A DNA stretch of 64,000 nucleotides. Source: an uncultured Gemmatimonadales bacterium. GTDB lineage: Bacteria; Gemmatimonadota; Gemmatimonadetes; Palauibacterales; Palauibacteraceae. The position numbers were made by a program, and so were the translations under genes. The notes beneath the pieces were generated by a model. That model saw only the letters and a list, made by a program, of their open reading frames with translations, had not been told where the DNA came from and made no database searches. Location: the NCBI GenBank assembly GCA_963783385.1, contig CAWANJ010000001.1, forward strand, positions 704,001 through 768,000, written 5' to 3'. Below, in pieces: positions 34,681-64,000 of this stretch (positions are counted from its first letter, which is position 1; every line of letters starts with the position of its first letter).

Positions 34681-35820
34681 ATGGCGGACGCGGACGCGGG
34701 CCGCCGCGCGCCCCTCGAGATCCGGCCCGGACCGGAGGGCCGCCTGATCGTCAAGCTCCCCTACGATCCCGCGCTCGTGCGCCGGATCCGCGGGATCGCG
34801 GGGCGGCACTGGAATCCGGCGGAGAAGCACTGGACGGTGCCCCGAACGCCCGGAACGGTAGGGCACCTCCTGGAGATGTTCGAGGGCGAGCCCGTGGTGC
34901 TGGACCCGGGTCTGGGCGGCTCGGGGCCGGTGGCGGCGATTCCCGCCGGGGAAGGAGACGCCGGCGAGCTCCTGGCCCGCACCCGCGAGGAGCTCGGGCT
35001 CCGGGGCTACAGCCCCAAGACCCGCCGGGCCTACGCCGGCCACGTGCGCCGCTTCCTGGAATGGCTGGCGAGGGAAGGAGGCGACACCGGGGACCCGGGC
35101 CAGGACGACCTCCGCCGGCACGTGGCCCGCCTCCTGGAGCGGAAGGGCGTGTCCCACTCCTACGCCAACCAGTGCGTGAGCGCGCTCAAGTTCCTGTACG
35201 AGCACGTGCTCGAGCGCCCGATCGGCCAGCTCCGGCTGCCGAGGCCCAAGATCGAGCGCAAGCTCCCCGTGGTCCTCTCGCGCGAGGAGGTCCGGCAGAT
35301 CTTCCGGGCCGTCCCCAACCGGAAGCACCGCGCCCTCCTCATGCTCGTCTACTCCGCGGGGCTCCGGGTGGGGGAAGTGGTGCGCCTGCGGCCCGACGAC
35401 CTGGACACCGGGCGAGGACTCCTGCACGTGCGGCAGGGAAAAGGCCGGAAGGACCGGTACGTCATGCTGTCGGCCGTGGCCGTCGAGGCCGTCGAGGAGT
35501 ACGTCCGCTTCTTCGAGCCCACGCGGTGGCTGTTCCCGGGCGCGAGGCCGCGCCGCCACCTGCACGAGCGCTCCGTGCAGCACCTGTTCGCCCGGGCGTG
35601 CCGCAAGGCGGGCATCCGGAAGCACGCCACCGTGCACACATTGCGGCACTCCTTCGCCACCCATCTTCTGGAAAAAGGCGTGAACCTGCGGTACATTCAG
35701 GAGCTTCTGGGCCACAAGAGCCCCAAGACCACCCAGGTCTACACCCGCGTCGCCGAAGGAGACCTGGCACGAATACAGAGCCCCCTGGACGATCTCATGC
35801 GGGACAAAGGCGCCGGCTAG
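34681..35820 (+). CDS. Tyrosine recombinase (integron-integrase-like, no IntI insertion, HARP-like N-terminal extension)
   Basis: GGAGG RBS; SAM-like domain (RGYSPKTRRAY...SALKFLY); intact R-K-HxxR-H-Y (GLRVGE, GKGRKDR, HTLRH, LLGH, TQVY). Confidence 0.92.
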   Translation: MADADAGRRAPLEIRPGPEGRLIVKLPYDPALVRRIRGIAGRHWNPAEKHWTVPRTPGTVGHLLEMFEGEPVVLDPGLGGSGPVAAIPAGEGDAGELLARTREELGLRGYSPKTRRAYAGHVRRFLEWLAREGGDTGDPGQDDLRRHVARLLERKGVSHSYANQCVSALKFLYEHVLERPIGQLRLPRPKIERKLPVVLSREEVRQIFRAVPNRKHRALLMLVYSAGLRVGEVVRLRPDDLDTGRGLLHVRQGKGRKDRYVMLSAVAVEAVEEYVRFFEPTRWLFPGARPRRHLHERSVQHLFARACRKAGIRKHATVHTLRHSFATHLLEKGVNLRYIQELLGHKSPKTTQVYTRVAEGDLARIQSPLDDLMRDKGAG

Positions 35821-36395
35821 CGAGCCCGGCGGCCTCCCTGCTGCTGCTGGCGGCCGCGGGCGCCCTGGCCTGCGCCGGAGAGCGCGGAGCCGCGCCCGGG
35901 GCCGCCGCCTGCGCCGCCCCCGATACCACGGCGACGGCGCACGTCGACCCCTCGCACCTCCGCGGCGTCTTCTCCCTCTCCATGCACGTGACCGCCGGCC
36001 GGCGGCCGGACTCCGTGGTCGAGGCCCGCCTGTGGCTCCGGCCGAGCGGGCGCGGCGACAGCCTCCCGAACGACCTGCCGTGGATCGTGGAGGGCCGGAC
36101 GACCCTGGCCATCACCTCCGCGTCCCTCGCCACGGACGACCCCTCGGGCGCCCTCCTCACCTCGGACTCCGTCGCCCCGCGCCACGTGGTCGGCTTCTGG
36201 GACCCCAACGAGCGCTCGATCGCGCTCCTCCGCACGCGCGACCCGGGCGACGACACGACCCGCGTCCAGCGCGGCGTCGCCCTCCGGGTCCTGGACACGA
36301 GCGCGGACGGCTTCCGCGGCACCTGGCACACCGCGTTCTGGAGGCCGCCGCTGCCGTCGGGGTTCTTCTGCGCGCGGCGGGCGGGAGGAGAGTGA
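35817..36395 (+). CDS. Putative lipoprotein, start uncertain
   Basis: LLLLAAAGALAC lipobox-like leader in the open frame ending 36395. Confidence 0.5.
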   Translation, partial: LASPAASLLLLAAAGALACAGERGAAPGAAACAAPDTTATAHVDPSHLRGVFSLSMHVTAGRRPDSVVEARLWLRPSGRGDSLPNDLPWIVEGRTTLAITSASLATDDPSGALLTSDSVAPRHVVGFWDPNERSIALLRTRDPGDDTTRVQRGVALRVLDTSADGFRGTWHTAFWRPPLPSGFFCARRAGGE

Positions 36396-36685
36396 CGATG
36401 GTGCCGCGGACGAGAATCCCGACCCATCCCGGCGTGATCCTGCTGAGGGAGTTCCTGAGGCCGCTGGAACTGACCCGGGTGGCGTTCGCGGAGCACATCG
36501 GCGTCCCCGTTCAGCGAGTCAATGAAATCGTGAACGGGAAGCGAGCATTGACACCCGCGACGGCCTGGCTTCTGTCCGGCGCGTTCGGGACGAGCCCCGA
36601 GTTCTGGCTCAGGCTCCAGAATGCATACGACCTGGCCGTGAGTCACCCGGCACGTACGGTCGAGCGCCTCACCGGCAGGGTTTGA
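36392..36685 (+). CDS. higA: HigA-family antitoxin (no adjacent toxin)
   Basis: PTHPGVILLREFL...RVNEIVNGKR...FGTSPEFWLRLQ. Confidence 0.85.
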   Translation: MTMVPRTRIPTHPGVILLREFLRPLELTRVAFAEHIGVPVQRVNEIVNGKRALTPATAWLLSGAFGTSPEFWLRLQNAYDLAVSHPARTVERLTGRV

Positions 36686-36716
36686 CCCCCGCAGGGGGAC
36701 ACACGAGCTTTCAAGC

Positions 36717-37004
36717 ATGAAGATCGATCGTGAGGCCATGGCCGCTATCTGCCGGCGCAACGACATCGCGCGGCTGAGACTGTTCGGGTCGTTCGCCCGC
36801 GGCGAGGCGGACGACGGCAGCGACGTGGACCTCATCGCCGATTTCCTGCGTCCCAAGAGCCTGCTCGAGCTCGTGCGCATCCAGCGGGAATTCTCGGAGG
36901 CCCTGGGTCGCGACGTCGACCTCCTCACGGAGCGATCGATCAGCCCACACCTTCGGGAGCGAATCGTCCGGGACGCGCGGATCGTGTATGAGCGCGCCGC
37001 GTGA
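36717..37004 (+). CDS. Minimal nucleotidyltransferase (MntA-like antitoxin)
   Basis: LFGSFARGE...SDVD. Confidence 0.85.
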   Translation: MKIDREAMAAICRRNDIARLRLFGSFARGEADDGSDVDLIADFLRPKSLLELVRIQREFSEALGRDVDLLTERSISPHLRERIVRDARIVYERAA

Positions 37005-37335
37005 CGACTCCGTCTATGTGGCGCACATCCGGGAAGCCATCCATCGCGTCCAGTCGTACATCCGCGGCCTGACGAAGGAAGCGTTCCTCGAGACGCCTCT
37101 CGTGCAAGACGCCGTCATTCGCCAGCTGCAGATCATCGGAGAAGCCGCGAAACGTCTGTCGTCCGACTACCGGGCACGCACATCGGATGTCCCGTGGTCG
37201 GACATCACGGGGATGCGAGAGAAGTTGGTGCACGACTACATGGGCGTGGATCTCGAGGCGGTGTGGGAGACGGTCGTGCGGGATCTCCCGGAGCTGAGGG
37301 AGTGGCTGGAAGAGGCCGATGAATCTAAAGCTTGA
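36988..37335 (+). CDS. HEPN/DUF86 toxin (HepT-like)
   Basis: DAVIRQLQIIGEA, REKLVH (RxxxxH); coupled to MNT. Confidence 0.85.
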   Translation: MSAPRDDSVYVAHIREAIHRVQSYIRGLTKEAFLETPLVQDAVIRQLQIIGEAAKRLSSDYRARTSDVPWSDITGMREKLVHDYMGVDLEAVWETVVRDLPELREWLEEADESKA

Positions 37336-37400
37336 CATAGGGAGCATCCCTCAAAGGCATCGCAAGCCAGCCCACCACGCCATCATCCCAGATACCGAGT

Positions 37401-37431
37401 CACGCCAACGAACGAGTTAAGCGCCACACGT
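37401..37431 (+). other. Putative attI-like primary recombination site
   Basis: CCAAC-6 nt-GTTAAGC (GTT at 37416); following bases are the inverted complement of cassette 1's 3' end (14/16); no attC upstream. Confidence 0.6.
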
Positions 37432-38741: not shown

Positions 38742-38843
38742 GCTTAACACGACGGGTGCCGCTTCACCGCCTGCGGCGGCTCGCCCTTCGGGACGCCCGC
38801 TCGCTGGGACTCGCGGGCGTCGGCAACCGCGGGGACGTTAGAC
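38742..38843 (+). repeat. attC-like site 1 (family A, 102 bp)
   Basis: GCTTAAC...GTTAGAC; stem CGGGTGCCG/CGGCAACCG. Confidence 0.85.
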
Positions 38844-39036
38844 GCCAGGTCCCCAAGACGGGGGTGATCGATTCCCGATTCGGAGGCGATGTCCCGAACC
38901 GCTGCCGCGAGAGGCGCAGCTCAGGCCGACCCCCGCTCGGAGGGAGAGAGAGCCTCCGAATCGAAGCTGAAGAGCGAATCGCTTAGCAGGTTGGAAGACA
39001 GGGCCACCGCTTGGATCGGGGGACCCGGCGTCTAAC
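38838..39036. repeat. ORF-less structured cassette, copy 1 (cassette 2)
   Basis: Terminal IR and internal CGATTCGGAGGC/GCCTCCGAATCG stem. Confidence 0.85.
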
Positions 39037-39185
39037 AGGATGGGTAGCGGCTCGCGCGCGAGGGCGCGCTCGCTTCAACCTGCTAGGCTTTTCGAAGGCG
39101 GGGATTCGGTGCGGGCTGCTAATCGAGGATCGGTCCGGCAGCGCAGAGCGGGCCAAGCAGGTTCGCTACCCACCGGACGTTAAGC
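39030..39185 (+). repeat. attC-like site 2 (family B)
   Basis: GTCTAAC...GTTAAGC; TGGGTAGCG/CGCTACCCA and AACCTGC/GCAGGTT stems. Confidence 0.85.
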
Positions 39186-39235
39186 GTCACGCTTATATCT
39201 CACCAACCTTGCTCAACGGATGTGGGCACCGGCCA

Positions 39236-39865: not shown

Positions 39866-39884
39866 CGCATTGGGGACGCGCGAC

Positions 39885-40040
39885 GCTTAACAGGACGTGT
39901 GGCGGCTCGCGCGCCAAGGCGCGCTCGCTTCAACCTGCGGAATGCTGGATGAAGCAGTCAGGGGAAACGAGACATGTAGCATATATCAGTCAGGCGAACG
40001 AGAGTGGCCCGCAGGTTCGCCACCCGCCAGAACGTTATCG
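39885..40040 (+). repeat. attC-like site 3 (family D)
   Basis: GCTTAAC...GTTATCG. Confidence 0.85.
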
Positions 40041-40147
40041 GACCTGAGCCGCTCGGCTAGCACGAGTGGATTGGTGGTTGGAACCCCTACGGCCCGGTGT
40101 ACAGGTATCTGCTTGAGCAAGTGCCCGCGGCGGGAGGACTTCACTCA

Positions 40148-40711
40148 ATGTCGATCCAAGCCTCGATCGCATCCTTATGCACGGTGCTGGCGGCTGTCTT
40201 CATGACCTTCGCGGTGCCCCCCAGGGGGACCCAGGCCCAGTCGGTCAAACTCCCGGCGCCGAACGTTCGTCTATGCTATGCGGACTGTGACAGCATCCCC
40301 TCGCTCCCCGATCACGCGGAGCCACACCTCGCGAACCCCTCCGTCATGTTTCAGGCCATGACGGAGGCGTACCGACAGAGACCCAAGACGGCTGCGATCG
40401 GTGGCAGCGCTACCGTGGCGATCCTCATTGGCCAAGATGGTTCGGTCCGAGAGGTTCGTCTCATCACCAGCTCTGGCCACGCTACAATCGACACCATGGC
40501 CGTAGCGGTCGGCAGCGTGATCCGGGCCGCCCCCCGGCCTGGAAGCAAGAAGGTGCATGCCCGCTGGTACGAGATGCCCATCGCCTTCGAGACGAGAGAT
40601 GATGCGAGACAGCCGGTCTACGCCCCGTGTCGGAGATCAAGTCCGATAACAGGTCGGGTGGCGGCTCGCGCGCCAAGGCGCGCTCGCTTCAACCTGCGGG
40701 ATGTCGCTTGA
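40148..40711 (+). CDS. Cassette 4: TonB C-terminal domain protein; ORF ends inside attC 4
   Basis: Signal peptide; G..TVAILIGQDGSV..VRLITSSGH..ID. Confidence 0.65.
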   Translation: MSIQASIASLCTVLAAVFMTFAVPPRGTQAQSVKLPAPNVRLCYADCDSIPSLPDHAEPHLANPSVMFQAMTEAYRQRPKTAAIGGSATVAILIGQDGSVREVRLITSSGHATIDTMAVAVGSVIRAAPRPGSKKVHARWYEMPIAFETRDDARQPVYAPCRRSSPITGRVAARAPRRARFNLRDVA

Positions 40712-40799
40712 AGCCGTCAGCGAAGACGGCCCATGTAGCATATATCAGTCAGGCGGACGCGGCGGGCCCGCAGGTTCGCCACCCGCAAGGACGTTAGAC
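40644..40799 (+). repeat. attC-like site 4 (family D)
   Basis: CGATAAC...GTTAGAC. Confidence 0.85.
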
Positions 40800-40992
40800 G
40801 CCAGGTCCCCAAGACGGGGGTGATCGATTCCCGATTCGGAGGCAATGTCCCGAGCCGCTGCCTCCAGAAGCGCAGCTCGAGCCGAGTTCCGCCCGGAGGG
40901 AGAGAGAGCCTCCGAATCGAAGCTGAAGAGCGAATCGCTTAGCAGGTTGGGAGGCAGGGCCGCCGCTTGGATCGGGGGACCCGGCGTCTAAC
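40794..40992. repeat. ORF-less structured cassette, copy 2 (cassette 5)
   Basis: Same family as 38838-39036. Confidence 0.85.
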
Positions 40993-41142
40993 AGGATGGG
41001 TAGCGGCTCGCGCGCAAAGGCGCGCTCGCTTTAACCTGCTGAGGCCTCTCGCAGATGGGGATCCGATGCGGGCTGCTGATCGAGGATCGGTCCGGCATCC
41101 GAGAGCGGGCCAAGCAGGTTCGCTACCCACCGGACGTTAGGC
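40986..41142 (+). repeat. attC-like site 5 (family B)
   Basis: GTCTAAC...GTTAGGC. Confidence 0.85.
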
Positions 41143-41335
41143 GCCAGGTCCCCAAGACGGGGGTGATCGATTCCTGATTCGGAGGCGAGGTCCCGAGCCG
41201 CGGCCTCAAGAGGCGCAGCTCGAGCCGGACTCCGCTCGAAGGGAGAGAGAGCCTCCGAATCGAGGCTGAAGAGCGAATCGCTTAGCAGGTTGGAAGGCAG
41301 GGCCACCGCTTGGATCGGGGGACCCGGCGCCTAAC
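41137..41335. repeat. ORF-less structured cassette, copy 3 (cassette 6)
   Basis: Same family; appears identical to 43289 and 48458 copies. Confidence 0.85.
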
Positions 41336-41484
41336 AGGATGGGTGGTGGCTCGCGCGCGCTCGCGCGCTCGCAGCAACCTGCGGTAGCTTTTCGAAAAGG
41401 GGAGGCGATGTCGGCGGTCGATTCGGACGCGTCCAGCCCTACGGGTCAGTCCAGCGCAGGTTCACCACCCACCGGACGTTAGAC
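41329..41484 (+). repeat. attC-like site 6 (family C)
   Basis: GCCTAAC...GTTAGAC; TGGGTGGTG/CACCACCCA stem. Confidence 0.85.
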
Positions 41485-41677
41485 GCCAGGTCCCCAAGAC
41501 AGGGGTGATCGATGCCCGATTCGGAGGCGATGTCCCGAACCGCGGCCGCGAGAGGCGCAGCTCAGGCCGACCCCCGCTCGGAGGGAGAGAGAGCCTCCGA
41601 ATCGAGGCTGAAGATCGAATCGCTTCGCAGGTGAGCAGGCAGGGCCGCCGCTTGGATCGGGGGACCCAGCGTCTAAC
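41479..41677. repeat. ORF-less structured cassette, copy 4 (cassette 7)
   Basis: Same family. Confidence 0.85.
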
Positions 41678-41827
41678 AGGATGGGTAGCGGCTCGCGCGC
41701 GAGGGCGCGCTCGCTTCAACCTGCTGAGGCTTCTCGAAGGTGGGGATTCGATGCGGGCTGCTGATCGAGGATCGGTCCGGCAGCGCAGAGCGGGCCAAGC
41801 AGGTTCGCTACCCACCGGACGTTAGAC
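41671..41827 (+). repeat. attC-like site 7 (family B)
   Basis: GTCTAAC...GTTAGAC. Confidence 0.85.
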
Positions 41828-41859
41828 GGAATTCCAAAGGATTCTGAGGGAGCAGAGGA

Positions 41860-42024
41860 ATGCGCACACCGAGGCCACAGGGCTGGAGACCCACAATGTC
41901 CGCAGCCGCAGCAGCCGGTGCTGCCGGTCTCGGGGTCCCGACACACTCCCCTGTCTGGACCGCCTTCGGCGCACTCGTCGGTGCCACGATCGGTTACCTC
42001 GTCGCACTTCGACTAGACAAGTAG
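41860..42024 (+). CDS. Cassette 8: 54-aa small membrane peptide (not in ORF track)
   Basis: MRTPRPQGWRPTMSAAAAAGAAGLGVPTHSPVWTAFGALVGATIGYLVALRLDK; fills the cassette, RBS-like leader. Confidence 0.55.
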   Translation: MRTPRPQGWRPTMSAAAAAGAAGLGVPTHSPVWTAFGALVGATIGYLVALRLDK

Positions 42025-42035
42025 AGAGGAACTCC

Positions 42036-42193
42036 GTCTAACAGGACGGGCGGCGGCTCGCGCGCTCTCGCGCGCTCGACCCAACCTGCGGTAGCTTTTC
42101 AGAAATCGGAACGGTGAGGTGGCGACCGGTGGAGAACCGCTCCGCCCTGCTCTTCAGGCCACCGCAGGTTCGCCACCCGCCGGGACGTTATCC
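42036..42193 (+). repeat. attC-like site 8 (family E)
   Basis: GTCTAAC...GTTATCC. Confidence 0.85.
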
Positions 42194-42217
42194 GCAATCT
42201 CAAGAGGGTTAGGTTCG

Positions 42218-42436: not shown

Positions 42437-42460
42437 GCCAGCACGGGAGCGAGAGTCTGC

Positions 42461-42616
42461 GGATAACAGGATGGGTAGCGGCTCGCGCGCTGCGCGCACT
42501 CGCTTCAACCTGCTGAAGCTGTTCGGAGGTGGGGATTCGGTGCGGGCAGCTGATCGAAGATCGGTCCGGCAGCGGAGAACCGGCCAAGCAGGTTCGCTAC
42601 CCACCGGACGTTAGGC
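42461..42616 (+). repeat. attC-like site 9 (family B)
   Basis: GGATAAC...GTTAGGC. Confidence 0.85.
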
Positions 42617-42809
42617 GCCAGGTCCCCGAAACGGGATGTGCCGGGTTCCGATTCGGAGGCGAGGTCCCGAGCCGCTGCCTCTAGAAACGCAGCTCAGGCT
42701 GAGCTCCACTCGGAGGGAGAGGATGCCTCCGAATCGAGGCTGAAGAGCGAATCACTTAGCGAGATGACAGGCAGGGCCACCGCTTGGATCGGGGGACCCG
42801 GCGCCTAAC
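42611..42809. repeat. ORF-less structured cassette, copy 5 (cassette 10)
   Basis: Same family. Confidence 0.85.
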
Positions 42810-42956
42810 AGGATGGGTGGTGGCTCGCGCGCTCGCGCGCTCGCAGCAACCTGCGGTAGCTTTTCGAAAAGGGGAGGCGATGTCGGCGGTCGATTCGGTC
42901 GCGTCCAATCCAGCGATTCAGGCCAACGCAGGTTCACCACCCACCGGACGTTAGGC
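42803..42956 (+). repeat. attC-like site 10 (family C)
   Basis: GCCTAAC...GTTAGGC. Confidence 0.85.
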
Positions 42957-43149
42957 GCCAGGTCCCCGAAACTGGATGTGCCGGGTTCCGATTCGGAGGC
43001 GGGGTCCCGAGCCACTGCCTAGAGAGGCGCAGCTCAGGCTGAGCTCCACTCGGAGGGACAGAATGCCTCCGAATCGAGGCTGAAGAGCGAGTCGCTTAGC
43101 GAGAGGGAAGGCAGGGCCACCGCTTGGATCGGGGGACCCGGCGCCTAAC
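42951..43149. repeat. ORF-less structured cassette, copy 6 (cassette 11)
   Basis: Same family. Confidence 0.85.
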
Positions 43150-43294
43150 AGGATGGGTGGTGGCTCGCGCTCGCGCGCTCGCGGCAACCTGCGGTAGCTT
43201 TTCGAAAAGGGGAGGCGATGCCGGCGGTCGATTCGGACGCGTCCAATCGAGCGAATCAGGCCAACGCAGGTTCACCACCCACCGGACGTTAGGC
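43143..43294 (+). repeat. attC-like site 11 (family C)
   Basis: GCCTAAC...GTTAGGC. Confidence 0.85.
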
Positions 43295-43487
43295 GCCAGG
43301 TCCCCAAGACGGGGGTGATCGATTCCTGATTCGGAGGCGAGGTCCCGAGCCGCGGCCTCAAGAGGCGCAGCTCGAGCCGGACTCCGCTCGAAGGGAGAGA
43401 GAGCCTCCGAATCGAGGCTGAAGAGCGAATCGCTTAGCAGGTTGGAAGGCAGGGCCACCGCTTGGATCGGGGGACCCGGCGCCTAAC
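43289..43487. repeat. ORF-less structured cassette, copy 7 (cassette 12)
   Basis: Same family. Confidence 0.85.
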
Positions 43488-43636
43488 AGGATGGGTGGTG
43501 GCTCGCGCGCGCTCGCGCGCTCGCAGCAACCTGCGGTAGCTTTTCGAAAAGGGGAGGCGATGTCGGCGGTCGATTCGGACGCGTCCAGCCCTACGGGTCA
43601 GTCCAGCGCAGGTTCACCACCCACCGGACGTTATCA
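43481..43636 (+). repeat. attC-like site 12 (family C)
   Basis: GCCTAAC...GTTATCA. Confidence 0.85.
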
Positions 43637-43684
43637 GAAACGCGCCCCAGCTGATTGGAAATAGGAGATTGGTACTGCAGCGCC

Positions 43685-44285: not shown

Positions 44286-44441
44286 TGATAACAGGACGGG
44301 TGGCGGCTCGCGCGCCAAGGCGCGCTCGCTTCAACCTGCGGAATGTCGGTTGAAGCAGTCACTGGAAGCGGGCAATGTAGCATATGTCAGTCAGGCAAAC
44401 GAGGGTGGCCCGCAGGTTCGCCACCCACCGGGGCGTTATGT
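44286..44441 (+). repeat. attC-like site 13 (family D)
   Basis: TGATAAC...GTTATGT. Confidence 0.85.
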
Positions 44442-45123: not shown

Positions 45124-45225
45124 ACATAACACGACGGCTGCCGCTTCGCCGCCTGCGGCGGCTCGCCCTGCGGGACGCCCGCTCGCTGAGACTCGCGGGC
45201 GTCGGCAACCGCGGGGACGTTAGAC
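45124..45225 (+). repeat. attC-like site 14 (family A)
   Basis: ACATAAC...GTTAGAC. Confidence 0.85.
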
Positions 45226-45419
45226 GCCAGGTCCCCGAAACAGGGGATGGTCGGTTCCCGATTCGGAGGCGATGTCCCGTAGCGCTGCCTCGGTGAACGC
45301 AGCTCAGGCTGAGCTCCACTCGGAGGGAGAGGATGCCTCCGAATCGAGGCTGAAGAGCGAATCGCTTAGCGAGATGGAAGGCAGGGCCACCGCTTGGATC
45401 GGGGGACCCGGCGCCTAAC
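45220..45419. repeat. ORF-less structured cassette, copy 8 (cassette 15)
   Basis: Same family; one core mismatch (GTTAGAC/GCCTAAC). Confidence 0.85.
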
Positions 45420-45569
45420 AGGATGGGTGGTGGCTCGCGCGCGCTCGCGCGCTCGCAGCAACCTGCGGTAGCTTTTCGAAAAGGGGGAGGCGATGTCGGC
45501 GGTCGATTCGGACGCGTCCAGCCCAACGAGTCAGGCCAGCGCAGGTTCACCACCCACCGGACGTTAGAC
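45413..45569 (+). repeat. attC-like site 15 (family C)
   Basis: GCCTAAC...GTTAGAC. Confidence 0.85.
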
Positions 45570-45762
45570 GCCAGGTCCCCAAGACGGGGGTGATCGATTC
45601 CCGATTCGGAGGCGATGTCCCGAACCGCTGCCGCGAGAGGCGCAGCTCAGGCCGACCCCCGCTCGGAGGGAGAGAGAGCCTCCGAATCGAAGCTGAAGAT
45701 CGAATCGCTTAGCAGGTTGGGAGGCAGGGCCGCCGCTTGGATCGGGGGACCCGGCGTCTAAC
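45564..45762. repeat. ORF-less structured cassette, copy 9 (cassette 16)
   Basis: Same family. Confidence 0.85.
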
Positions 45763-45911
45763 AGGATGGGTAGCGGCTCGCGCGCGAGAGCGCGCTCGCT
45801 TCAACCTGCTAGGCTTTTCGAAGGTGGGGATCCGATACGGGCTGCTGATCGAGGATCGGTCCGGCAGCGGAGAGCGGGCCAAGCAGGTTCGCTACCCACC
45901 GGACGTTAGGC
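45756..45911 (+). repeat. attC-like site 16 (family B)
   Basis: GTCTAAC...GTTAGGC. Confidence 0.85.
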
Positions 45912-46104
45912 GCCAGGTCCCCGAAACAGGGTGTGCCGGGTTCCGATTCGGAGGCGATGTCCCGAACCGCTGCCTCCAGAAGCGCAGCTCGAGCCAGCTT
46001 CCGCTCGGAGGGAGAAAGAGCCTCCGAATCGAGGCTGAAGAGCGAATCGCTTGGCGAGATGGCAGGCAGGGCCACCGCTTGGATCGAGGGACCCGGCGCC
46101 TAAC
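45906..46104. repeat. ORF-less structured cassette, copy 10 (cassette 17)
   Basis: Same family. Confidence 0.85.
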
Positions 46105-46253
46105 AGGATGGGTGGTGGCTCGCGCGCGCTCGCGCGCTCGCAGCAACCTGCGGTAGCTTTTCGAAAAGGGGAGGCGATGTCGGCGGTCGATTCGGACGCG
46201 TCCAGCCCAACGAGTCAGGCCAGCGCAGGTTCACCACCCACCGGACGTTATAA
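46098..46253 (+). repeat. attC-like site 17 (family C)
   Basis: GCCTAAC...GTTATAA. Confidence 0.85.
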
Positions 46254-46906: not shown

Positions 46907-46999
46907 TTATAACAAACGGGTGCCGCCTTCGCTCGCTGCGCTCGCTCCGGAGAACACGGCCCGCGGTGCGGGCCGCGTCGGCACCCTAGGACGTTATGT
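46907..46999 (+). repeat. attC-like site 18 (short, 93 bp)
   Basis: TTATAAC...GTTATGT; GGGTGCCG/CGGCACCC. Confidence 0.8.
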
Positions 47000-47598: not shown

Positions 47599-47755
47599 AC
47601 ATAACAGGACGGGTAGCGGCTCGCGCGCGGAAGCGCGCTCGCTTCAACCTGCTGAAGCACTTCGGAGGTGGGGATCGGATGCGGGCTGCTGATCAGGGAC
47701 CGGTCCGGCAGCGGAGAGCCTGCCAAGCAGGTTCGCTACCCACCGGACGTTAGGC
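47599..47755 (+). repeat. attC-like site 19 (family B)
   Basis: ACATAAC...GTTAGGC. Confidence 0.85.
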
Positions 47756-47948
47756 GCCAGGTCCCCGAAACAGGGTGTGCCGGGTTCCGATTCGGAGGCA
47801 ATGTCCCGAACCGCTGCCTCCAGAAGCGCAGCTCGAGCCAGCTTCCGCTCGGAGGGAGAAAGAGCCTCCGAATCGAGGCTGAAGAGCGAATCGCTTGGCG
47901 AGATGGCAGGCAGGGCCACCGCTTGGATCGAGGGACCCGGCGCCTAAC
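47750..47948. repeat. ORF-less structured cassette, copy 11 (cassette 20)
   Basis: Near-identical to 45906 copy. Confidence 0.85.
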
Positions 47949-48097
47949 AGGATGGGTGGTGGCTCGCGCGCGCTCGCGCGCTCGCAGCAACCTGCGGTAG
48001 CTTTTCGAAAAGGGGAGGCGATGTCGGCGGTCGATTCGGACGCGTCCAGCCCAACGAGTCAGGCCAGCGCAGGTTCACCACCCACCGGACGTTAGAC
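47942..48097 (+). repeat. attC-like site 20 (family C)
   Basis: GCCTAAC...GTTAGAC. Confidence 0.85.
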
Positions 48098-48305: not shown

Positions 48306-48463
48306 GTCTAACAGGACGGGCGGCGGCTCGCGCGCTCTCGCGCGCTCGACCCAACCTGCGGTAGCTTTTCAGAAATCGGAACGGTGAGGTGGCGACCGGT
48401 GGAGAACCGCTCCGCCCTGCTCTTCAGGCCACCGCAGGTTCGCCACCCGCCGGGACGTTAGGC
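48306..48463 (+). repeat. attC-like site 21 (family E)
   Basis: GTCTAAC...GTTAGGC. Confidence 0.85.
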
Positions 48464-48656
48464 GCCAGGTCCCCAAGACGGGGGTGATCGATTCCTGATT
48501 CGGAGGCGAGGTCCCGAGCCGCGGCCTCAAGAGGCGCAGCTCGAGCCGGACTCCGCTCGAAGGGAGAGAGAGCCTCCGAATCGAGGCTGAAGAGCGAATC
48601 GCTTAGCAGGTTGGAAGGCAGGGCCACCGCTTGGATCGGGGGACCCGGCGCCTAAC
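48458..48656. repeat. ORF-less structured cassette, copy 12 (cassette 22)
   Basis: Same family. Confidence 0.85.
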
Positions 48657-48805
48657 AGGATGGGTGGTGGCTCGCGCGCGCTCGCGCGCTCGCAGCAACC
48701 TGCGGTAGCTTTTCGAAAAGGGGAGGCGATGTCGGCGGTCGATTCGGACGCGTCCAGCCCTACGGGTCAGTCCAGCGCAGGTTCACCACCCACCGGACGT
48801 TAACT
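48650..48805 (+). repeat. attC-like site 22 (family C)
   Basis: GCCTAAC...GTTAACT. Confidence 0.85.
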
Positions 48806-49518: not shown

Positions 49519-49678
49519 AGTTAACAAACAAGTTGCGCCTACGCCGCGCATGCGCGGCTCCGGGGAACACCGGCGCAAGGCACGCGGGCCGTGGGAAGCG
49601 TGCCGAGAATGTGTCGAAGAGCGGTGCTCGACGGGCCGTGACGGACGCGCCGGCGTCGCAACTTTAGGAACGTTAGGC
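49519..49678 (+). repeat. attC-like site 23 (unique, 160 bp)
   Basis: AGTTAAC...GTTAGGC; AAGTTGCG/CGCAACTT. Confidence 0.8.
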
Positions 49679-49871
49679 GCCAGGTCCCCGAAACAGGGTG
49701 TGCCGGGTTCCGATTCGGAGGCGATGTCCCGAACCGCTGCCTCCAGAAGCGCAGCTCGAGCCAGCTTCCGCTCGGAGGGAGAGAGAGCCTCCGAATCGAG
49801 GCTGAAGAGCGAATCGCTTGGCGAGATGGCAGGCAGGGCCACCGCTTGGATCGAGGGACCCGGCGCCTAAC
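49673..49871. repeat. ORF-less structured cassette, copy 13 (cassette 24)
   Basis: Near-identical to 45906 copy. Confidence 0.85.
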
Positions 49872-49933
49872 AGGATGGGTGGTGGCTCGCGCGCGCTCGC
49901 GCGCTCGCAGCAACCTGCGGTAGCTTTTCGAAA
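49865..49933 (+). repeat. attC-like site 24 (family C), left part; interrupted by IS1595 element
   Basis: Family C sequence stops at TTTCGAAA and resumes at 54537. Confidence 0.85.
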
Positions 49934-49998
49934 CGGAACTATGCACTTGACAAACCCATGCGCCCATGGTACCTTTCATAGTAGAAAGGGGAGCTACC

Positions 49999-51954: not shown

Positions 51955-54500
51955 GGTCGCTCGTCGTTGACGCCCTATCTGGCCGAGAAGTAATCGCCGG
52001 CCCAGAGGAACGGGACGCAACGCAGCCTTTTGTCTTCTATCTGACGCAGCGCCTCGGCTGGCATCCGAAGCAGATCATTACTCGTCCTCAGTGGCGAGTA
52101 CCCAAGTCCCCGTCGTCGCCAAGAAGCTCGGGCTATCCAGTAGACATTGCCATCTTTGACTCAGAGGAGTACGCGGGAGACCCCGACCACATCCAGATCA
52201 TTGTAGAGTGCAAAGCGCCAAGCGAGGATCAGGGAATAGGGGAGCTCAAGACCTACCTGGGCTTAGAGCCAGAAGCACGCCTTGGCATTTGGTTCAACGG
52301 TGAGAAGCATGTGCTGGTATGGAAGGTGGCGGACGGCTTCTCGGTCGACAGATATGGACCAGTGCCGCGCTCAACCGACCCGTTAGCGCCAACCGAATCG
52401 CAGCCTCCGCTTCGATATGTAGACCTCGTACCGCCGCCCAACCTAGGCGAGATTTTCCGTAGGCTTCGGGACCGCATTGCCGCGCAGGACACGCACGTCA
52501 ACAGGGATGAGTTCATTCTAAACGATCTTGCCAACCTACTCGTGTGCAAGATAGCCGACGAGCAGGAAGGACAATTGGAGCCCAATCGGCCGATGGCGTT
52601 TCAGCTGGCGGGTTCGCAGAAAGCCACAGCGGAGTCGATTCGCCGCTACTTCACGGAGATCAAGAATCGACTAACATCCGTGTTCACGGACAGAGATGAG
52701 CGATTGCACATTGACGACGAGAGCTTGGAAGAAGTGGTGCGAACACTTCAAGCCTACATTTTGCTCGACCATGACAGACATGCCGTGGGCACGGCGTTTC
52801 AGGTCCTTCGCGGTCGAGCGTTAAAGGGCGAGGAGGGCTCCTATTTCACCCCGCCGCCGCTCGTTGACTGCGTGGTGTCCATCCTAGACCCTGATCACGG
52901 CACTCGACTCGTTGATCCGGCTTGTGGAACGGGCGGATTCTTGGCGGCTGCTCTCGATCACGTTTTCACTGGGATCGACAACAAGAAGCTGTCCGCCGAT
53001 GCGAAGACACGCGCTAAGACCACATGGGCGGGCGAATCTCTCATTGCGGTAGACAAGGATGCAGTATCCACGAAGCTATGCAAGGCATACCTCACCCTTC
53101 TTGGAGATGGGCGGTCACACGTCTACCGGGCAGATGCGATTGACCGGACCGCGTGGGGCGAGCGGGCCGATGACCTGCAACGGGTTGTGGCGAGCGGGAC
53201 CTTCGACCAGGTCATGACTAACCCGCCGTTCGGATCGAAGCTCAAGATTAGCGCGGATACCGGTCGCCAGGAGCAGTTGCTGGTATGCAGGAGGTGGGTC
53301 GACGCAGGATCTGAATGGAAACCAACCGACGAATGGACGGACCAGCAGCTCGGCATCGCATTCTTTGAGCGTGCTGTGGATCTCCTAAGCAACGGAGGAA
53401 ATCTCGCCATCGTTCTTCCGGAGACCTTTCTGTTCTCCCCAAGCTTCAAATGGTTCATTGACTGGATTTGCCGAACTCTTACAGTTACCCATGTTGTCGA
53501 CGTTCCCATGGTAGCATTCGAGGAGTTTTGCCGCGCCAAGACGTGCCTCGTCTTCGTCCGAAAGACCAAGCCATCCCCCGGACATTGCACGGTCATGAGC
53601 TTCCCACGATCTATCGGACAAGACAAGCGGGGCAAGCCTCTCTTCGCGCTCAATGGAGAGGGCGTAAGAAAGGAGGGGGAGGGCCTTGACAATGAAATGG
53701 CGGAGGCCGTGAAGGAGATCGTTTCGAGGGGCTACAGGGGCAAGACGAAAACGGATCGCAAGGGAAGCCATGGTCGCTATTGCTTCACAGTAGCTCAAGC
53801 GGACATCAGGAGGCGTGGCGTTCTTGTCCCCCGCTTTTGGTGGAGGTCACATACTGACGATGCTTTACATGAATGGTCAGAGAAGCACGACAGCCGGATA
53901 CTGAGCCTCGGTGAGCTTGCAGACCGCGGAGCGATTGAAGCCTTCAGCGGACATGGCTCGCCACCAGGAAATGCGAGGGGAACCGGAAAGGTCCCTTATG
54001 TGAAGGTTACCGATCTGAAGAACTGGCGCATCAACGAAAACCCGACAAACTTCATTCACCAGAGCATCGCAGAGAAGTATTGGGCACGCGGACCGTCACT
54101 TGAGTACGGAGATTTGATCTCTCCCGCTCGCGCTTCATTGAACATCGGACAGTTTTCGATGGTGCTACCGTGGCAGACTCGCATCGTGGTGACTCGTGAG
54201 GTGCTAATCTTACGCGTCCACGACAACGATCTAGGGATAGACCCGTTCCTGCTGCTTGTGCTCCTTTCCTTGAAAGTGGTGCAGGACCAATACGAGAACC
54301 TCGCTCTCATGCAGACCAACAGGGAGCATTGAGGAGACCACTGGCGCGAAGTCCAAATCCCGATACCGGCCACAGAGTCTGCCAGGAAGCAACTGTCGCG
54401 TCCCGTGCGGGATTACTTCGATGCGATCATAGCGGCTCGCGAGTCATACCGAAGAATCTTCACCAAGTACGACCGTCAGGATTTCGGCACAAGGCCATGA
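51951..54500 (+). CDS. Fused restriction-modification enzyme (nuclease + N6-MTase + specificity-like domain), in-frame TGA at 54330-54332
   Basis: VDIAIF...IVECK, DPACGTGGF, TNPPF, IVLPE; frame stays open to TGA at 54498-54500. Confidence 0.8.
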
Positions 54501-54536
54501 CGGCGGCGCACTGGGTTTGTCAACGCCATAGTTCCG

Positions 54537-54631
54537 TTTCGAAAAGGGGAGGCGATGTCGGCGGTCGATTCGGACGCGTCCAGCCCAACGAGTCAGGCCA
54601 GCGCAGGTTCACCACCCACCGGACGTTATGC
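54537..54631 (+). repeat. attC-like site 24, right part
   Basis: Family C remainder ending GTTATGC. Confidence 0.85.
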
Positions 54632-54941: not shown

Positions 54942-55043
54942 GCATAACACGACGGGTGCCGCTTCGCCGCCTGCGGCGGCTCGCCCTTCGGGACGCCCGC
55001 TCGCTGAGACTCGCGGGCGTCGGCAACCGCGAGGACGTTATAC
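54942..55043 (+). repeat. attC-like site 25 (family A)
   Basis: GCATAAC...GTTATAC. Confidence 0.85.
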
Positions 55044-55803: not shown

Positions 55804-55953
55804 GTATAACAAACGGTGGCCGGCTGCGCGGCCTGCGGCCGCTCCGCGCAACTGGCGCGCACACGTTGCGCATCTGGAGAGCTGCGGTGTCATTAGGCGT
55901 TGTGCTGAGACGCGGCCACGGCGCGCCAGTTCGGCAACCTAGGAACGTTATGC
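55804..55953 (+). repeat. attC-like site 26 (unique)
   Basis: GTATAAC...GTTATGC. Confidence 0.8.
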
Positions 55954-57332: not shown

Positions 57333-57434
57333 GCATAACACGACGGGTGCCGCTTCGCCGCCCGCGGCGGCTCGCCCTTCGGGACGCCCGCTCGCCGAGA
57401 CTCGCGGGCGTCGGCAACCGCAAGGACGTTATCC
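57333..57434 (+). repeat. attC-like site 27 (family A)
   Basis: GCATAAC...GTTATCC. Confidence 0.85.
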
Positions 57435-58238: not shown

Positions 58239-58394
58239 GGATAACAGGACGGGCGGCGGCTCGCGCGCTAGCGCGCTCGCAGCAACCTGCGGTAGCTTTT
58301 TGGAAACCCGCACCGGACCCGGTGACTGACGGAGGACCGCCCTGCCATGGCCTTCGGGCCACCGCAGTTTCGCCACCCGCCGGGGACGTTATGC
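58239..58394 (+). repeat. attC-like site 28 (family E-like)
   Basis: GGATAAC...GTTATGC. Confidence 0.85.
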
Positions 58395-59561: not shown

Positions 59562-59660
59562 GCATAACAGGTCCGCTGGCGGCCCGAGGCTGTGCCTCGG
59601 GCCTACACCTGCCCTCGCTCGTCGCTCGGGCAGGCGTCGCCAGCTGCCGGGACGTTAGGC
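59562..59660 (+). repeat. attC-like site 29 (unique, 99 bp)
   Basis: GCATAAC...GTTAGGC; GCTGGCG/CGCCAGC. Confidence 0.8.
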
Positions 59661-60305: not shown

Positions 60306-60401
60306 GCCTAACATGACGGGTCCCGGCTCGGACGCTGCGCGCCCTCGCACACGCCGCCTCGCAACCGCTCGGCAGCGTCGGGACCCGCAAGGACGTTATG
60401 T
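60306..60401 (+). repeat. attC-like site 30 (unique, 96 bp)
   Basis: GCCTAAC...GTTATGT; CGGGTCCCG/CGGGACCCG. Confidence 0.8.
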
Positions 60402-61305: not shown

Positions 61306-61407
61306 ACATAACATGACGGCTGCCGCTTCGCCGCCTGCGGCGGCTCGCCCTTCGGGACGCCCGCTCGCTGAGACTCGCGGACGTCGGCAACCGCAAGGAC
61401 GTTAACT
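61306..61407 (+). repeat. attC-like site 31 (family A)
   Basis: ACATAAC...GTTAACT. Confidence 0.85.
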
Positions 61408-61505
61408 GACACCGTACCACCTATGCCGGCGCGAGTTGCAGCTGTCAGTGGCATGGATGGCGGCTAAATTGAGGGCTTGCATGCCCCTTGCCGGAGGATC
61501 GGACC

Positions 61506-62000
61506 ATGGCCGAGTCGAAGCGCCGCCACGCTTTCATTAGCCATCATCATGCCGACGACGAACACGTCGACCGCATGACCTCCCTTCTGAGCCGAGCTGG
61601 GTACGACATCCGCAACAGTTCGATACGTGCCAAGCCTGCTAACCAGCGCCGGTTGGAGGAGGGGCGCGTCTCTGACGCGGTGATCCGACGCCTCCTCCGA
61701 ATGAAGATCTCTTGGGCTGGCACGGTCGTGGTCCTCGTGGGGAAGGACACTCACAGTCGGCAATGGGTGGACTGGGAGATCAACGAGGCTCACCAGCAGG
61801 GTAAGACGATCGTCGGGGTATACACGCGTGGAGGCAAAGAGGCCGACGTGCCAGAGGCCCTTGAAAAGTATGGCTCATCCATCGTTGGTTGGCACTCCGA
61901 TAGCATCATGGCCGCTATCGATGGGCAGGAAAATCGGTTTGAGAACCCTGATGGGACACCGCGAGCGCCCGTCCACGCTGGCCGGTCTGTCAACTGCTAG
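61506..62000 (+). CDS. Cassette 32: TIR-like domain protein (DUF1863/ThsB-like)
   Basis: HAFISH, VVLVG..T..RQWVDWEI. Confidence 0.8.
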   Translation: MAESKRRHAFISHHHADDEHVDRMTSLLSRAGYDIRNSSIRAKPANQRRLEEGRVSDAVIRRLLRMKISWAGTVVVLVGKDTHSRQWVDWEINEAHQQGKTIVGVYTRGGKEADVPEALEKYGSSIVGWHSDSIMAAIDGQENRFENPDGTPRAPVHAGRSVNC

Positions 62001-62005
62001 ATCTG

Positions 62006-62650
62006 ATGCACTGTCTGATGTTTGTGGTCGCCCGAGACTTCGGGTTCGCGCCAAACCCCTTTCACGGCGTCTGTACCCTAGCAACTTGCAAGCCGGTGAT
62101 CCGTCGCGTGGCGAGGATCGGGGACTGGCTCTTCGGGGTCGGTGGTGCTCGTCTGGGCGCCACCGGTCGTCTCATCTTTGCAATGGAAGTCACTGAGACC
62201 CTGACGTTCGACCAATACTGGCAAGATCCACGCTTTCGGCCGAAGCGTCCGGCCCGAAATGGCACTCGGAAGATGCTGGTTGGCGACAACATTTATCACA
62301 GCGATCCGAGTACGGGGCGTTGGGTGCAGGAAGACTCCCACCACAGCAATCCCGACGGCTCGGCAAACGAGGCAAACGTTCAGCATGACACCAAGACTGA
62401 CCGCGTGTTGATTAGCCAGCGATTCTTCTACTTCGGCAAGGCCGCCCCTGACGTGCCAGTGGGCTTGGTGCAGGCTCTGGGCTACGAGAATGGACGTGGG
62501 CACCGCAGGTACACGTTGGATCAGTTCCAGCCCCTGATGCGTTGGCTCGAAGCGGAGTTCGGCAGCTCGTTGAACCGAGTGTCCGGCGATCCTTTCGAGT
62601 TCGAGAGCGGTGAGCGCCGGTACTCAGTTGCCAGCGACAGGGTTACATGA
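62006..62650 (+). CDS. Cassette 32: Nmad2-like nucleotide-modification-associated protein
   Basis: RDFGFAPNPFHGVCTLATCKP.IR...GDW...GDNIY. Confidence 0.75.
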   Translation: MHCLMFVVARDFGFAPNPFHGVCTLATCKPVIRRVARIGDWLFGVGGARLGATGRLIFAMEVTETLTFDQYWQDPRFRPKRPARNGTRKMLVGDNIYHSDPSTGRWVQEDSHHSNPDGSANEANVQHDTKTDRVLISQRFFYFGKAAPDVPVGLVQALGYENGRGHRRYTLDQFQPLMRWLEAEFGSSLNRVSGDPFEFESGERRYSVASDRVT

Positions 62651-62654
62651 CGGT

Positions 62655-63677
62655 ATGGCGTCCTCTTCTAGCGTGCTCTCCGATCTCATGCCGACGGTTG
62701 TCTTCGAGACGTATTGGCGGTTCGCTCATCTTAGGCAGGAGATATACTATGGGCGGCTTCGATCCCTGAGCCCCCCCTGGACGAGCGACTCGATCCTGTC
62801 CACGTATCGGTTCACCAACGCCTTCCGAGCGGCCGATCGTGTCAGTCAGTATCTGATCTCAGAAGTCATCTATCACGACGATCACAGATCCGACACTGCT
62901 GACGACATTGTTCTCCGCGTCCTGCTCTTCAAGATCTTCAACCGGATTGAGACGTGGGAATTGTTGCGCGAGCGGGTCGGGCGGATATCCGCCGCATCCT
63001 TTGAACCAAAACGCTATGCGAGGGTTCTCGAAGAGGAGATGACAGCCGGGCGCCCGATCTATTCAGCGGCCTACATCATGCCGTCACCTCGACAGTTTGG
63101 CGCCAGCCGAAAGCATGAGAACCATCTGGCTCTTCTTGCACAGATGATATCCGACCGGGTCGGACCCCAACTCGCTGACGCGGCAGACATGAGGTCAGCG
63201 TTCTCGATCCTGCGGGCGTATCCGGGCATCGGCGACTTCCTGGCCTATCAGTACGTAACCGACCTCAACTACAGCGAACTGACGGCGTTCTCGGAGAACG
63301 ATTTCGTGGTACCCGGACCCGGTGCCCGAGAGGGTATTAGGAAGGCCTTCTCCAGCACTGCGGGACGAACTGACGCGGACGTAATCCGAATCGTGAGCGA
63401 CGCCCAAGAAGAGCACTTCGCTCGGTTGGATCTGCCCTTCCAGGATCTGTTCGGACGTCCCCTGATGCATATCGATTGCCAGAACCTTTTCTGCGAGGTG
63501 GCGAAGTACTCTCGAGTCGCGCACCCTGGCTTCACCGCCGAGGGGGGACGAAAGCGTATCAAACAGCGTTTCCGGGCGAAGGGGCAGGTGCCGCGACCTT
63601 GGTTCCCGCCGAAATGGGGCATCAACGGTCAGGTAACGGAGGCTCTGGATCGGCAGGGGGAGGACAAATGGAGTTGA
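62655..63677 (+). CDS. Cassette 32: 5-hmdU DNA kinase helical-domain / aGPT-Pplase-like protein
   Basis: PPWT.D.IL..YRFTN.FR..DRVSQ, GPGAREG, DCQNLFCE..KY. Confidence 0.7.
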   Translation: MASSSSVLSDLMPTVVFETYWRFAHLRQEIYYGRLRSLSPPWTSDSILSTYRFTNAFRAADRVSQYLISEVIYHDDHRSDTADDIVLRVLLFKIFNRIETWELLRERVGRISAASFEPKRYARVLEEEMTAGRPIYSAAYIMPSPRQFGASRKHENHLALLAQMISDRVGPQLADAADMRSAFSILRAYPGIGDFLAYQYVTDLNYSELTAFSENDFVVPGPGAREGIRKAFSSTAGRTDADVIRIVSDAQEEHFARLDLPFQDLFGRPLMHIDCQNLFCEVAKYSRVAHPGFTAEGGRKRIKQRFRAKGQVPRPWFPPKWGINGQVTEALDRQGEDKWS

Positions 63678-64000
63678 GCGAGTACCAAGCTTTAGCGCTC
63701 CGGACCGATCAGGCTCCTGCCTCAGAAGGCGTGCCGGAGATAGTGCCCCTGCTCGGACTCGCCGGTGAGGTGGGTGAGCTGCTTAGCGAGTTCAAGAAGC
63801 ATTTGCGCGATGGAGAGGCTTATTGCCTGCATCCGACACGTGTTCAGGAAGAGCTGGGCGACATCCTCTGGTATGTCGCGGCCGTCAGCGATAGATACGG
63901 GCTAGAGCTCGAAGACGTGGCGGCGGCGAACCTAGTCAAGTGCGCCCAGACTTGGTTAGGAAGGAGCAAAGTTCCAGAACCCGCCAGTCTACGCTTCGAT
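63668..64000 (+). CDS. Cassette 32: MazG-like pyrophosphohydrolase, partial
   Basis: GLAGEVGELLSEFKK...EELGDILWY. Confidence 0.8.
   Translation, partial: MELSEYQALALRTDQAPASEGVPEIVPLLGLAGEVGELLSEFKKHLRDGEAYCLHPTRVQEELGDILWYVAAVSDRYGLELEDVAAANLVKCAQTWLGRSKVPEPASLRFD

Follow-up and report, generated by a model that had tools for sequence, protein, structure and literature searches.

A cassette array in an uncultured Gemmatimonadales bacterium as a probable integron variant with an IntI-like recombinase lacking the IntI-specific insert

We have analyzed a chromosomal cassette array in an uncultured Gemmatimonadales bacterium, located in a stretch of 64,000 nucleotides (G000:C1:704001-768000; hereafter the window, whose numbering is used throughout). 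The array probably represents a distinct integron variant, composed of a recombinase from an IntI sister lineage that lacks the I2 insert, an attI-like junction at a fixed position, and attC sites with no bulge in the L stem. An integron variant with an insert-less integrase is apparently undescribed, and no account of attC arrays headed by such an enzyme came up in a full-text literature search, supplements aside. The initial annotation of the window had proposed a distinct cassette platform headed by a non-IntI recombinase, and comparative tests, which are confined to sequence, lend support to that proposal. The genome of the window, G000, comprises 3.54 Mb in 9 contigs with 71% GC and is estimated to be 92% complete, and the names of homologues point to soil Gemmatimonadota; other G and L codes refer to compared genomes and loci.

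The recombinase (P0001, 387 aa; 34657..35820, + strand; PF13495 and PF00589) is the product of one of four tyrosine recombinase genes (PF00589) in the genome and the only one inside the window. It is co-oriented with the array, and its stop codon lies 1596 nt before the first crossover GTT at 37416, as was annotated earlier (a sole, co-oriented tyrosine recombinase gene ending 1.6 kb before the first GTT). The protein matches PF00589 with an E value of 2.5e-44 and is built from an N-terminal beta-alpha domain (approximately residues 20-82), a variable linker, a SAM-like core-binding domain and a catalytic domain, with the residues R237, K262, H327, R330, H353 and Y362 (R-K-H-R-H-Y) being invariant across 29 homologues. 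Canonical IntI was tested by means of the TIGR02249 cut-off and alignment to PDB 2a3v, in place of the intI_Cterm profile. The best NCBIfam match of the recombinase is indeed the integron integrase TIGR02249, at 223.7 bits in two pieces against a cut-off of 265. Model positions 178-232 have no counterpart in the recombinase, which falls below the cut-off because this IntI-specific insert is missing; the description of the enzyme as non-IntI is thus upheld. The integron integrase was reportedly defined by Messier and Roy in 2001 through an IntI-specific additional domain near patch III. When aligned to Vibrio cholerae IntI4 (2a3v), residues 104-276 correspond to 4-174 and residues 298-378 to 238-318, so that 21 aa stand in the recombinase against 63 in IntI4 (residues 175-237) at the position of the insert, and the spacing from the beta-hairpin lysine to the HxxR motif is 66 residues versus 107-108 in sampled canonical IntIs.

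The remaining models fit less well still and also fall short of their own cut-offs, with scores of 144.3 bits for PRK15417 (cut-off 435), 208.6 for the XerA model NF040815 (cut-off 220), 186.6 for XerC (cut-off 335) and 185.2 for XerD (cut-off 329.6). Foldseek searches with an AF2 model (pLDDT 84.5) ranked 2a3v first and archaeal XerA second. A canonical intI elsewhere in the genome would have spoken against the proposal of the initial annotation and was looked for; in the 92%-complete G000, 0 of the 4 tyrosine recombinase genes pass the integron integrase cut-off. Two of the other genes are Xer-like (C9:584845 and C1:587637), and these served as the root of a maximum likelihood tree of 111 recombinases (281 columns, LG+G4, SH-aLRT supports only). 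All IntI-like proteins form one group in this tree (support 100), away from the Xer genes of G000. Within the group, the 20 insert-bearing IntIs constitute a single clade (support 100) alongside insert-less relatives, and the insert-less proteins of Gemmatimonadota fall into two clades (6 rows, support 92; 15 rows, support 96). Since the backbone is unresolved, the tree is silent on whether the insert-less state is ancestral or derived.

The cassette array extends on the + strand from 37417 to the end of the window at 64000 and onward to the contig end at window-equivalent 77153. Covariance models were built from the sites of G000 itself, R1 from 23 long sites and R2 from 16 short sites; minimum free energy folding rarely paired the site ends in this GC-rich DNA, and box and stem rules were used together with the covariance models instead. 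R1 and R2 detect 31 attC-type sites in the window, 30 whole and 1 split, all on the + strand (38742-61407). These delimit 31 cassettes and the start of a 32nd, and the earlier count of 31 sites and 32 cassettes is therefore accurate. On the minus strand the models give a single weak match (38981-39088, E 0.004).

The class A sites, given here with their R2 scores, are attC 1 (102 nt; 38742..38843, 113.3 bits), attC 14 (45124..45225, 113.2 bits), attC 25 (54942..55043, 117.6 bits), attC 27 (57333..57434, 115.9 bits) and attC 31, the last in the window (61306..61407, 115.1 bits). Class A-like sites are attC 18 (93 nt; 46907..46999, 63 bits), attC 29 (59562..59660, 65.7 bits) and attC 30 (60306..60401, 69.1 bits). 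The class B sites, with R1 scores, are attC 2 (156 nt; 39030..39185, 157.6 bits), attC 3 (39885..40040, 130.3 bits), attC 4 (40644..40799, 129.5 bits), attC 5 (40986..41142, 161 bits), attC 6 (41329..41484, 161.5 bits), attC 7 (41671..41827, 163.6 bits), attC 8 (42036..42193, 148.9 bits), attC 9 (42461..42616, 152.9 bits), attC 10 (42803..42956, 157 bits), attC 11 (43143..43294, 151.6 bits), attC 12 (43481..43636, 158.5 bits), attC 13 (44286..44441, 136.3 bits), attC 15 (45413..45569, 166.5 bits), attC 16 (45756..45911, 158.7 bits), attC 17 (46098..46253, 162.9 bits), attC 19 (47599..47755, 155.3 bits), attC 20 (47942..48097, 165 bits), attC 21 (48306..48463, 150.5 bits), attC 22 (48650..48805, 158.5 bits) and attC 28 (58239..58394, 130.5 bits). 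Two sites are divergent members of class B, namely attC 23 (49519..49678, 77.7 bits) and attC 26 (55804..55953, 75.4 bits), and attC 24 is split into halves at 49865..49979 and 54495..54631 (R1, 57.1 and 45.9 bits).

Beyond the window, 10 further sites occupy the remainder of the contig (L105), the next one beginning at window-equivalent 65109 (match at 1109-1227 of L105). At the end of contig C9 there are 4-5 sites on the opposite strand (L127 = G000:C9:987778-996241; class A, minus strand). Because the array reaches the end of C1 and opposite-strand sites occur at the end of C9, it probably runs on from C1 into C9 across the contig gap. Its length is at least 40 kb, and its sites number more than 40. 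Over the whole 3.54-Mb genome, R1 and R2 found no match outside the array except 3 class-A matches at the end of C9, and a crude strict detector gave 8.4 matches per 10 kb of strand inside the array versus 0.0014 outside. The GC content is 0.57-0.65 from 37.4 kb to the end of the window, compared to 0.69-0.77 upstream.

The array sites are genuine attC-type sites, with R''/R' boxes and covarying L stems. All of the 16 class A (~102 nt) and 23 class B (~156 nt) aligned sites have TAAC and GTTA, and at their ends the consensus sequences of both classes fit the R'' box RYYYAAC and the R' box GTTRRRY. The TAAC...GTTA ends pointed out in the initial annotation are these canonical boxes and no deviation from classical integrons. 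The L stem of class B covaries, for example at two pairs (RNAalifold; GC 14 / AU 7 / UA 1 and CG 15 / UA 8), and the 156-nt sites contain a three-way junction. R''/R' boxes, paired L boxes, a variable center and a structure better conserved than the sequence, which are features of attC sites in IntI integrons, are present. Rfam gave no match in the window.

Cassette boundaries could be established with the aid of a 343-bp mini-cassette that is present in 13 copies (38837-49871; e.g., 41136-41335) and is usable as a linkage test. Variants of its body are linked to the type of the right-hand attC and to the four bases after the left GTT, and never to the left-hand attC, from which it follows that the cassette unit is TTRRRY...body...attC...G, as in integrons. 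Counted from the G of GTT, the start of a cassette is complementary to the end of its own R''; the paired stretch measures exactly 10 contiguous bases in 33 of 40 cassettes and at least 7 in 38 of 40, which bears out the annotated complementarity of the ends of each cassette; non-cognate pairs have a median of 4 bases, and 5.7% of them reach 10. This complementarity does not set the array apart either, for it is equally long in canonical arrays.

Sequence comparison indicates that cassettes enter at a single fixed attI-like junction, G|TTA at 37416, downstream of the recombinase. The junction (37336..37422, + strand) places the crossover between G37416 and T37417 (...AACGAACGAG|TTAAGC). The beginning of the first cassette is complementary over 9 nt to the R'' of that cassette at 38742, and because this cassette obeys the pairing rule with the GTT at 37416, that position marks the insertion point. 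A locus of the same genus (L007/G003:C111) has a recombinase that is 94% identical over residues 99-386 (80% over the best segment) and the same four platform genes between recombinase and junction. Its sequence agrees with G000 as far as the G of G|TTA, apart from six bases ~20 nt further upstream, and then continues with a different first cassette. In a soil metagenome contig from another study, 37415 is joined to 42950 with 4 shared bases only, and this join is therefore not an assembly jump through a repeat. Metagenome contigs also contain alternative junctions at R' positions. Joints that go back along the array (45217 to 44434, and others) were considered as signs of excision and left uncounted, since circles, tandem copies or another cassette order could produce them. 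In genus g2, G004 and G023 have the sequence '...AATGC[AG]CGA|GTTAT' in common 170-270 nt past the recombinase stop and diverge thereafter, and a contig of G005 ends at GTTA. In G008, GTTAGAC abuts the recombinase stop and the next attC bears the complementary R''. The gene upstream of the recombinase encodes PPK2 in G000 and an Ndh-like protein in G008.

The anatomy of the L stem was compared by applying a single detector, which allowed a bulge on either arm or a mismatch, to both kinds of array. Beside insert-less recombinases, the L stem runs without interruption for 10-12 bp in 15 of 17 sites of the window, 7/8 of L147 and 9/9 of L033. In canonical-IntI arrays, 36 of 40 sites have a single-base bulge on the R''-L'' arm after 4-8 bp (L101 4/4, L102 8/10, L097 5/5, L008 5/5, L156 12/14, L158 2/2). 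The class A consensus L stem contains a 1x1 mismatch and no bulge, and the extrahelical base of the L box, a criterion for the sites of IntI integrons, is missing from the uninterrupted stems of the window; a bulged base may lie within the spacer. L147 and L156 both belong to G385, so this one genome houses two systems whose sites are of different types. In insert-less and canonical arrays alike, the unpaired spacer is longer by 2-3 bases on its R' side. Two candidate hallmarks were dropped in the course of this comparison. Extra bases on the arm opposite to that reportedly seen in Vibrio repeats were rejected because canonical L101 and L020 show the same spacer asymmetry, and a 10-bp R box was rejected because canonical arrays have medians of 7-10.5. 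By eye, the canonical integron of G031 has ~3 dissimilar candidate sites.

Recombinase, junction and array type accompany one another in different genera and families of Gemmatimonadota, with the same layout in one metagenome-assembled genome (MAG) of Ignavibacteriota. The search for co-occurrence with a covariance model, which the initial annotation had suggested, was run on 41 related genomes. A homologue (E<=1e-40) occurs in 8 of these, class A/B sites in 7 and both in 5, so that the sites are present in 5/8 genomes with a homologue versus 2/33 without one; canonical IntI is encoded by 7/41, of which only 1 has class A/B sites. A sample of 401 genomes of the phylum contained 18 with a homologue at E<=1e-70. 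Model matches, 1 to ~20 each, were obtained at 6 of the 9 homologue loci with at least 2.8 kb of downstream sequence, and every one of them lies downstream of the recombinase gene and is co-oriented with it. Five closed genomes of a sister genus that have no homologue at E<=1e-70 gave no model match. In 3 of 5 fragmented genomes with a homologue, no R1 match was found anywhere, arrays often being unassembled, and a model search over 151 genomes of the phylum, with 19 candidates scored per genome, returned only G000 and one weak match. Outside the phylum, the Ignavibacteriota MAG (L033) encodes an insert-less recombinase without the N-terminal domain, followed 27 nt past its stop by GTTAGCC and then by at least 9 sites of 130 nt, the first of which has GGCTAAC as its R''.

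A different origin would leave the neighboring recombinase out of account altogether. The array could be orphaned, a cluster of attC sites without an integron integrase (CALIN), built and maintained by a canonical IntI that is now lost, unassembled or acting in trans, with the neighboring recombinase idle or otherwise employed. Such clusters are frequent, canonical IntIs are common in the clade (the 7 of 41 related genomes), and G000 is 92% complete with an array that runs off its contig. The parts of Cury et al. 2016 that concern these enzymes (PMC4889954) describe 50 non-IntI tyrosine recombinases near attC sites in complete genomes, 21 of them in genomes without IntI, and conclude that such recombinases are not integron integrases. 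The four that were placed between IntI and Xer always had <3 sites nearby according to the same account (PMC4889954), in contrast to more than 40 sites here. Moreover, the combination of recombinase, junction and array type is shared by at least 13 loci from three families with differing upstream neighbors. Of the five layout-bearing genomes with the best assemblies, three (G284, G320 and G409) lack an IntI that passes the cut-off, and G284 is closed (one contig, 97% complete). The other two, G385 and G333, encode a canonical IntI, 227 kb away and on another contig, respectively. The canonical IntI of G385 has its own adjacent array with a different site type, and R1/R2 found no class A/B sites within ~19 kb of the canonical IntI gene in either genome. 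We consider an orphan cluster unlikely.

It could also be supposed that the recombinase is part of a separate mobile element, or a site-specific resolvase or invertase, and that by landing or recruitment it repeatedly came to lie at the attI end of canonical integrons, where it replaced intI but moves no cassettes. The wider recombinase family is large, is found in many phyla and often has no visible arrays; a distant homologue in L016 (G033:C71; 42% identity, no N-terminal domain) lies, by eye, directly before an IS91-type transposase gene; and four unrelated genes separate recombinase and junction in G000. Yet the recombinase is single-copy, is always at the same end and co-oriented, and is usually 0-480 nt from the first crossover site. 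No intI remnant was found beside it, and the site type is unlike that of canonical arrays, which repeated replacement of intI would not predict. This explanation is very improbable in our view.

Several observations weigh against an array run by its own insert-less recombinase and have to be set beside the evidence above. The support is drawn from association and anatomy; the compared related genomes are non-independent samples, and R1 and R2, having been built on the sites of G000 itself, detect related attC classes alone. The 3 of 9 loci without a covariance-model match are L152, which has matches of the crude detector only, and L153 and L154, which have none; the recombinase gene of L154 contains a stop codon. 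In L150, also headed by an insert-less recombinase, the L stem is uninterrupted in 5/14 sites and 8 more are parsed as 3 bp, a bulge and 9-11 bp; with this bulge 4 nt from the R box in 8 of 14 sites, the absence of an extrahelical base holds for the L stem only. The canonical IntIs of G385 and G333 could act in trans, G409 has a 100-aa IntI-like fragment, and an unassembled intI is possible in G000, considering its completeness and the contig gap that the array crosses. The distance of 1.6 kb and four genes between recombinase and junction in G000 is likewise unfavorable, as is a recombinase copy in G008 without the core-binding domain. Finally, the wider recombinase family is not always linked to arrays: in a sample covering Bacteroidota, Spirochaetota, Pseudomonadota and others, the crude detector found co-oriented families of downstream sites next to insert-less recombinases only in L033 and L061.

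The G008 copy (L015 = G008:C94, 1286-2230) has lost its whole SAM-like core-binding domain in frame and still lies directly before GTTAGAC and a cassette; a canonical IntI is encoded on another short contig of this genome. In an Undinarchaeales MAG (L027, 8478-11059), two insert-less homologues are arranged in tandem, and the archaeal contig ends just after the second.

We propose that the locus is a sedentary chromosomal cassette platform that would work like an integron, with an integrase from the IntI sister lineage lacking the I2 insert. The recombinase is predicted to bind the folded single-stranded attC (R box, unpaired spacer and L box) and the attI-like junction. One strand would be exchanged at G|TT, and replication would resolve the product, as in classical integrons. 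Under this model, the L stem of 9-12 bp is uninterrupted and the asymmetry of the site would reside entirely in the unpaired spacer, with its 2-3 extra bases on the R' side. As no base of the L stem is bulged, the enzyme would not need the I2 helix, which docks extrahelical bases in IntI. The N-terminal domain might, speculatively, help to bind the hairpin or the three-way junction. For the general form of this model, in which IntI-like recombinases that have lost the insert or never possessed it run full attC platforms and recognize hairpins without the extrahelical L-box base via spacer asymmetry, some of them with an N-terminal structure-binding domain, we regard the case as evenly balanced.

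The N-terminal domain comprises ~65 residues and has a pLDDT of 88.5 when modeled alone. Foldseek returned no match for it at E<=0.001. In VIA-align comparisons of the predicted model, the Z scores were 7.7 for the N-terminal domain of T4 UvsW, 5.9 for that of archaeal XPB and 3.9 for the SMARCAL1 HARP domain, suggesting a weak fold resemblance at scores below the level that would prove kinship. A Pfam HARP match was found in one homologue only, below the cut-off. The linker that follows the domain is hypervariable in length (34951-34959 in the window): one metagenome contig has 163 other letters there, and the homologue P0003 has a Pro/Arg-rich linker that is ~50 residues longer.

The four platform genes between recombinase and junction, all on the + strand, comprise an ORF for a lipoprotein-like protein (35823..36395) that has no Pfam match, shows a lipobox-like N-terminus by eye and is kept at the same place in L007/G003; an HTH_3 (HigA-like) gene (36398..36685; PF01381, E 1.8e-10) with a strain-variable middle; and an MNT/HepT toxin-antitoxin pair (36717-37004 and 36988-37335; PF01909 and PF01934) that is conserved in L007/G003. 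In related strains and metagenome contigs, a diverged stretch of equal length takes the place of the middle of the HTH gene (36453-36562), between nearly identical flanks.

The cargo of the cassettes is that usual for sedentary chromosomal integrons, i.e., toxin-antitoxin and anti-phage or defense genes. Pfam matches of cassette ORFs include a second MNT/HepT pair, TIR and ThsB-like proteins, DUF3800, a pPIWI-associated nuclease with DUF5343, Nmad2 with a 5-hmdU DNA kinase, DUF7661 and a TonB_C domain. A cassette of ~3.7 kb, occupying 61405-64000 and beyond, encodes the ThsB-like TIR protein, Nmad2 and the 5-hmdU DNA kinase. Nmad2 and 5-hmdU DNA kinase genes are DNA-hypermodification genes that are typically found in phages. 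The mini-cassette consists of a 196-nt body and a class B attC. Its bodies are 91% identical and apparently ORF-less, and they have a strong predicted fold (consensus -74.9 kcal/mol) with compensatory change at 2 pairs only; the mini-cassette may encode a small RNA or be a non-coding filler. The first cassette after the junction of L007 is a copy of it. The interruption of attC 24 is a 4.5-kb insertion (49980-54494) with an IS1595-family transposase gene (49966-50907; PF12762 and PF12760), a gene for an N6-methylase/Eco57I-like protein of 793 aa (51951-54332; PF02384) and two small ORFs without a family.

In the field, the I2 insert is regarded as the innovation by which integrons became possible. 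The account of the I2 helix in Escudero et al. 2020 (PMC7790495) describes it as docking extrahelical bases and as necessary for activity, and states that it is found in no other protein and that evolutionary intermediates are not known. Search tools define an integron by this IntI-specific insert, according to the description of such tools in Cury et al. 2016 (PMC4889954). If the proposed reading is correct, the I2 helix would be dispensable for single-stranded attC recombination, and there would be a second way to recombine folded attC sites, offering a handle on strand choice and single-strand exchange without docking of extrahelical bases. Many attC clusters of soil phyla that pass for 'integrase-less' would then be complete systems, and part of the CALIN 'dark matter' would be reclassified. 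Cassette gene capture, with toxin-antitoxin and anti-phage cargo, would reach further in abundant soil bacteria. The insert-less lineage could be a missing intermediate in the origin of integrons, or a sister solution.

Among known systems, the recombinase resembles Xer proteins (XerC/XerD and archaeal XerA) in having a catalytic domain without the insert and in its lysine-HxxR spacing (66 versus 107 in IntI). Unlike them, it scores below all Xer cut-offs, in a genome with two other Xer-like genes, groups with IntI in the tree, and adjoins a cassette array instead of a dif-type context. By the rule of IntegronFinder (PF00589 plus intI_Cterm), the locus would count as an integrase-less attC cluster, provided that the attC model of the program accepts the sites; it differs from a CALIN by a conserved IntI-like recombinase and a fixed insertion junction at the array head that recur across genomes. 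In layout, the locus resembles the reverse-orientation IntI integrons (inverted integrase group) of Treponema and other Spirochaetota and of archaea (Ghaly et al. 2022), whose integrase gene points at the array, with attI immediately downstream of it. Co-orientation of integrase and array is described for Spirochaetota and archaeal integrons in the relevant part of PMC9668308, and we found it beside canonical IntI in our own sample (L102, L097 and L156). Thus, of the joint deviation of recombinase, site structure and layout that had been annotated, the recombinase and the L-stem structure stand, and the co-orientation does not. Long homogeneous arrays, a crossover at G|TT of R' and cassettes with toxin-antitoxin and defense genes are further points in common with the reverse-orientation integrons. 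In contrast to these, the window recombinase has no IntI insert and falls below the family cut-off, most insert-less members from Gemmatimonadota carry an extra N-terminal domain, and the L stem of the window attC sites is uninterrupted where canonical arrays have a bulged base.

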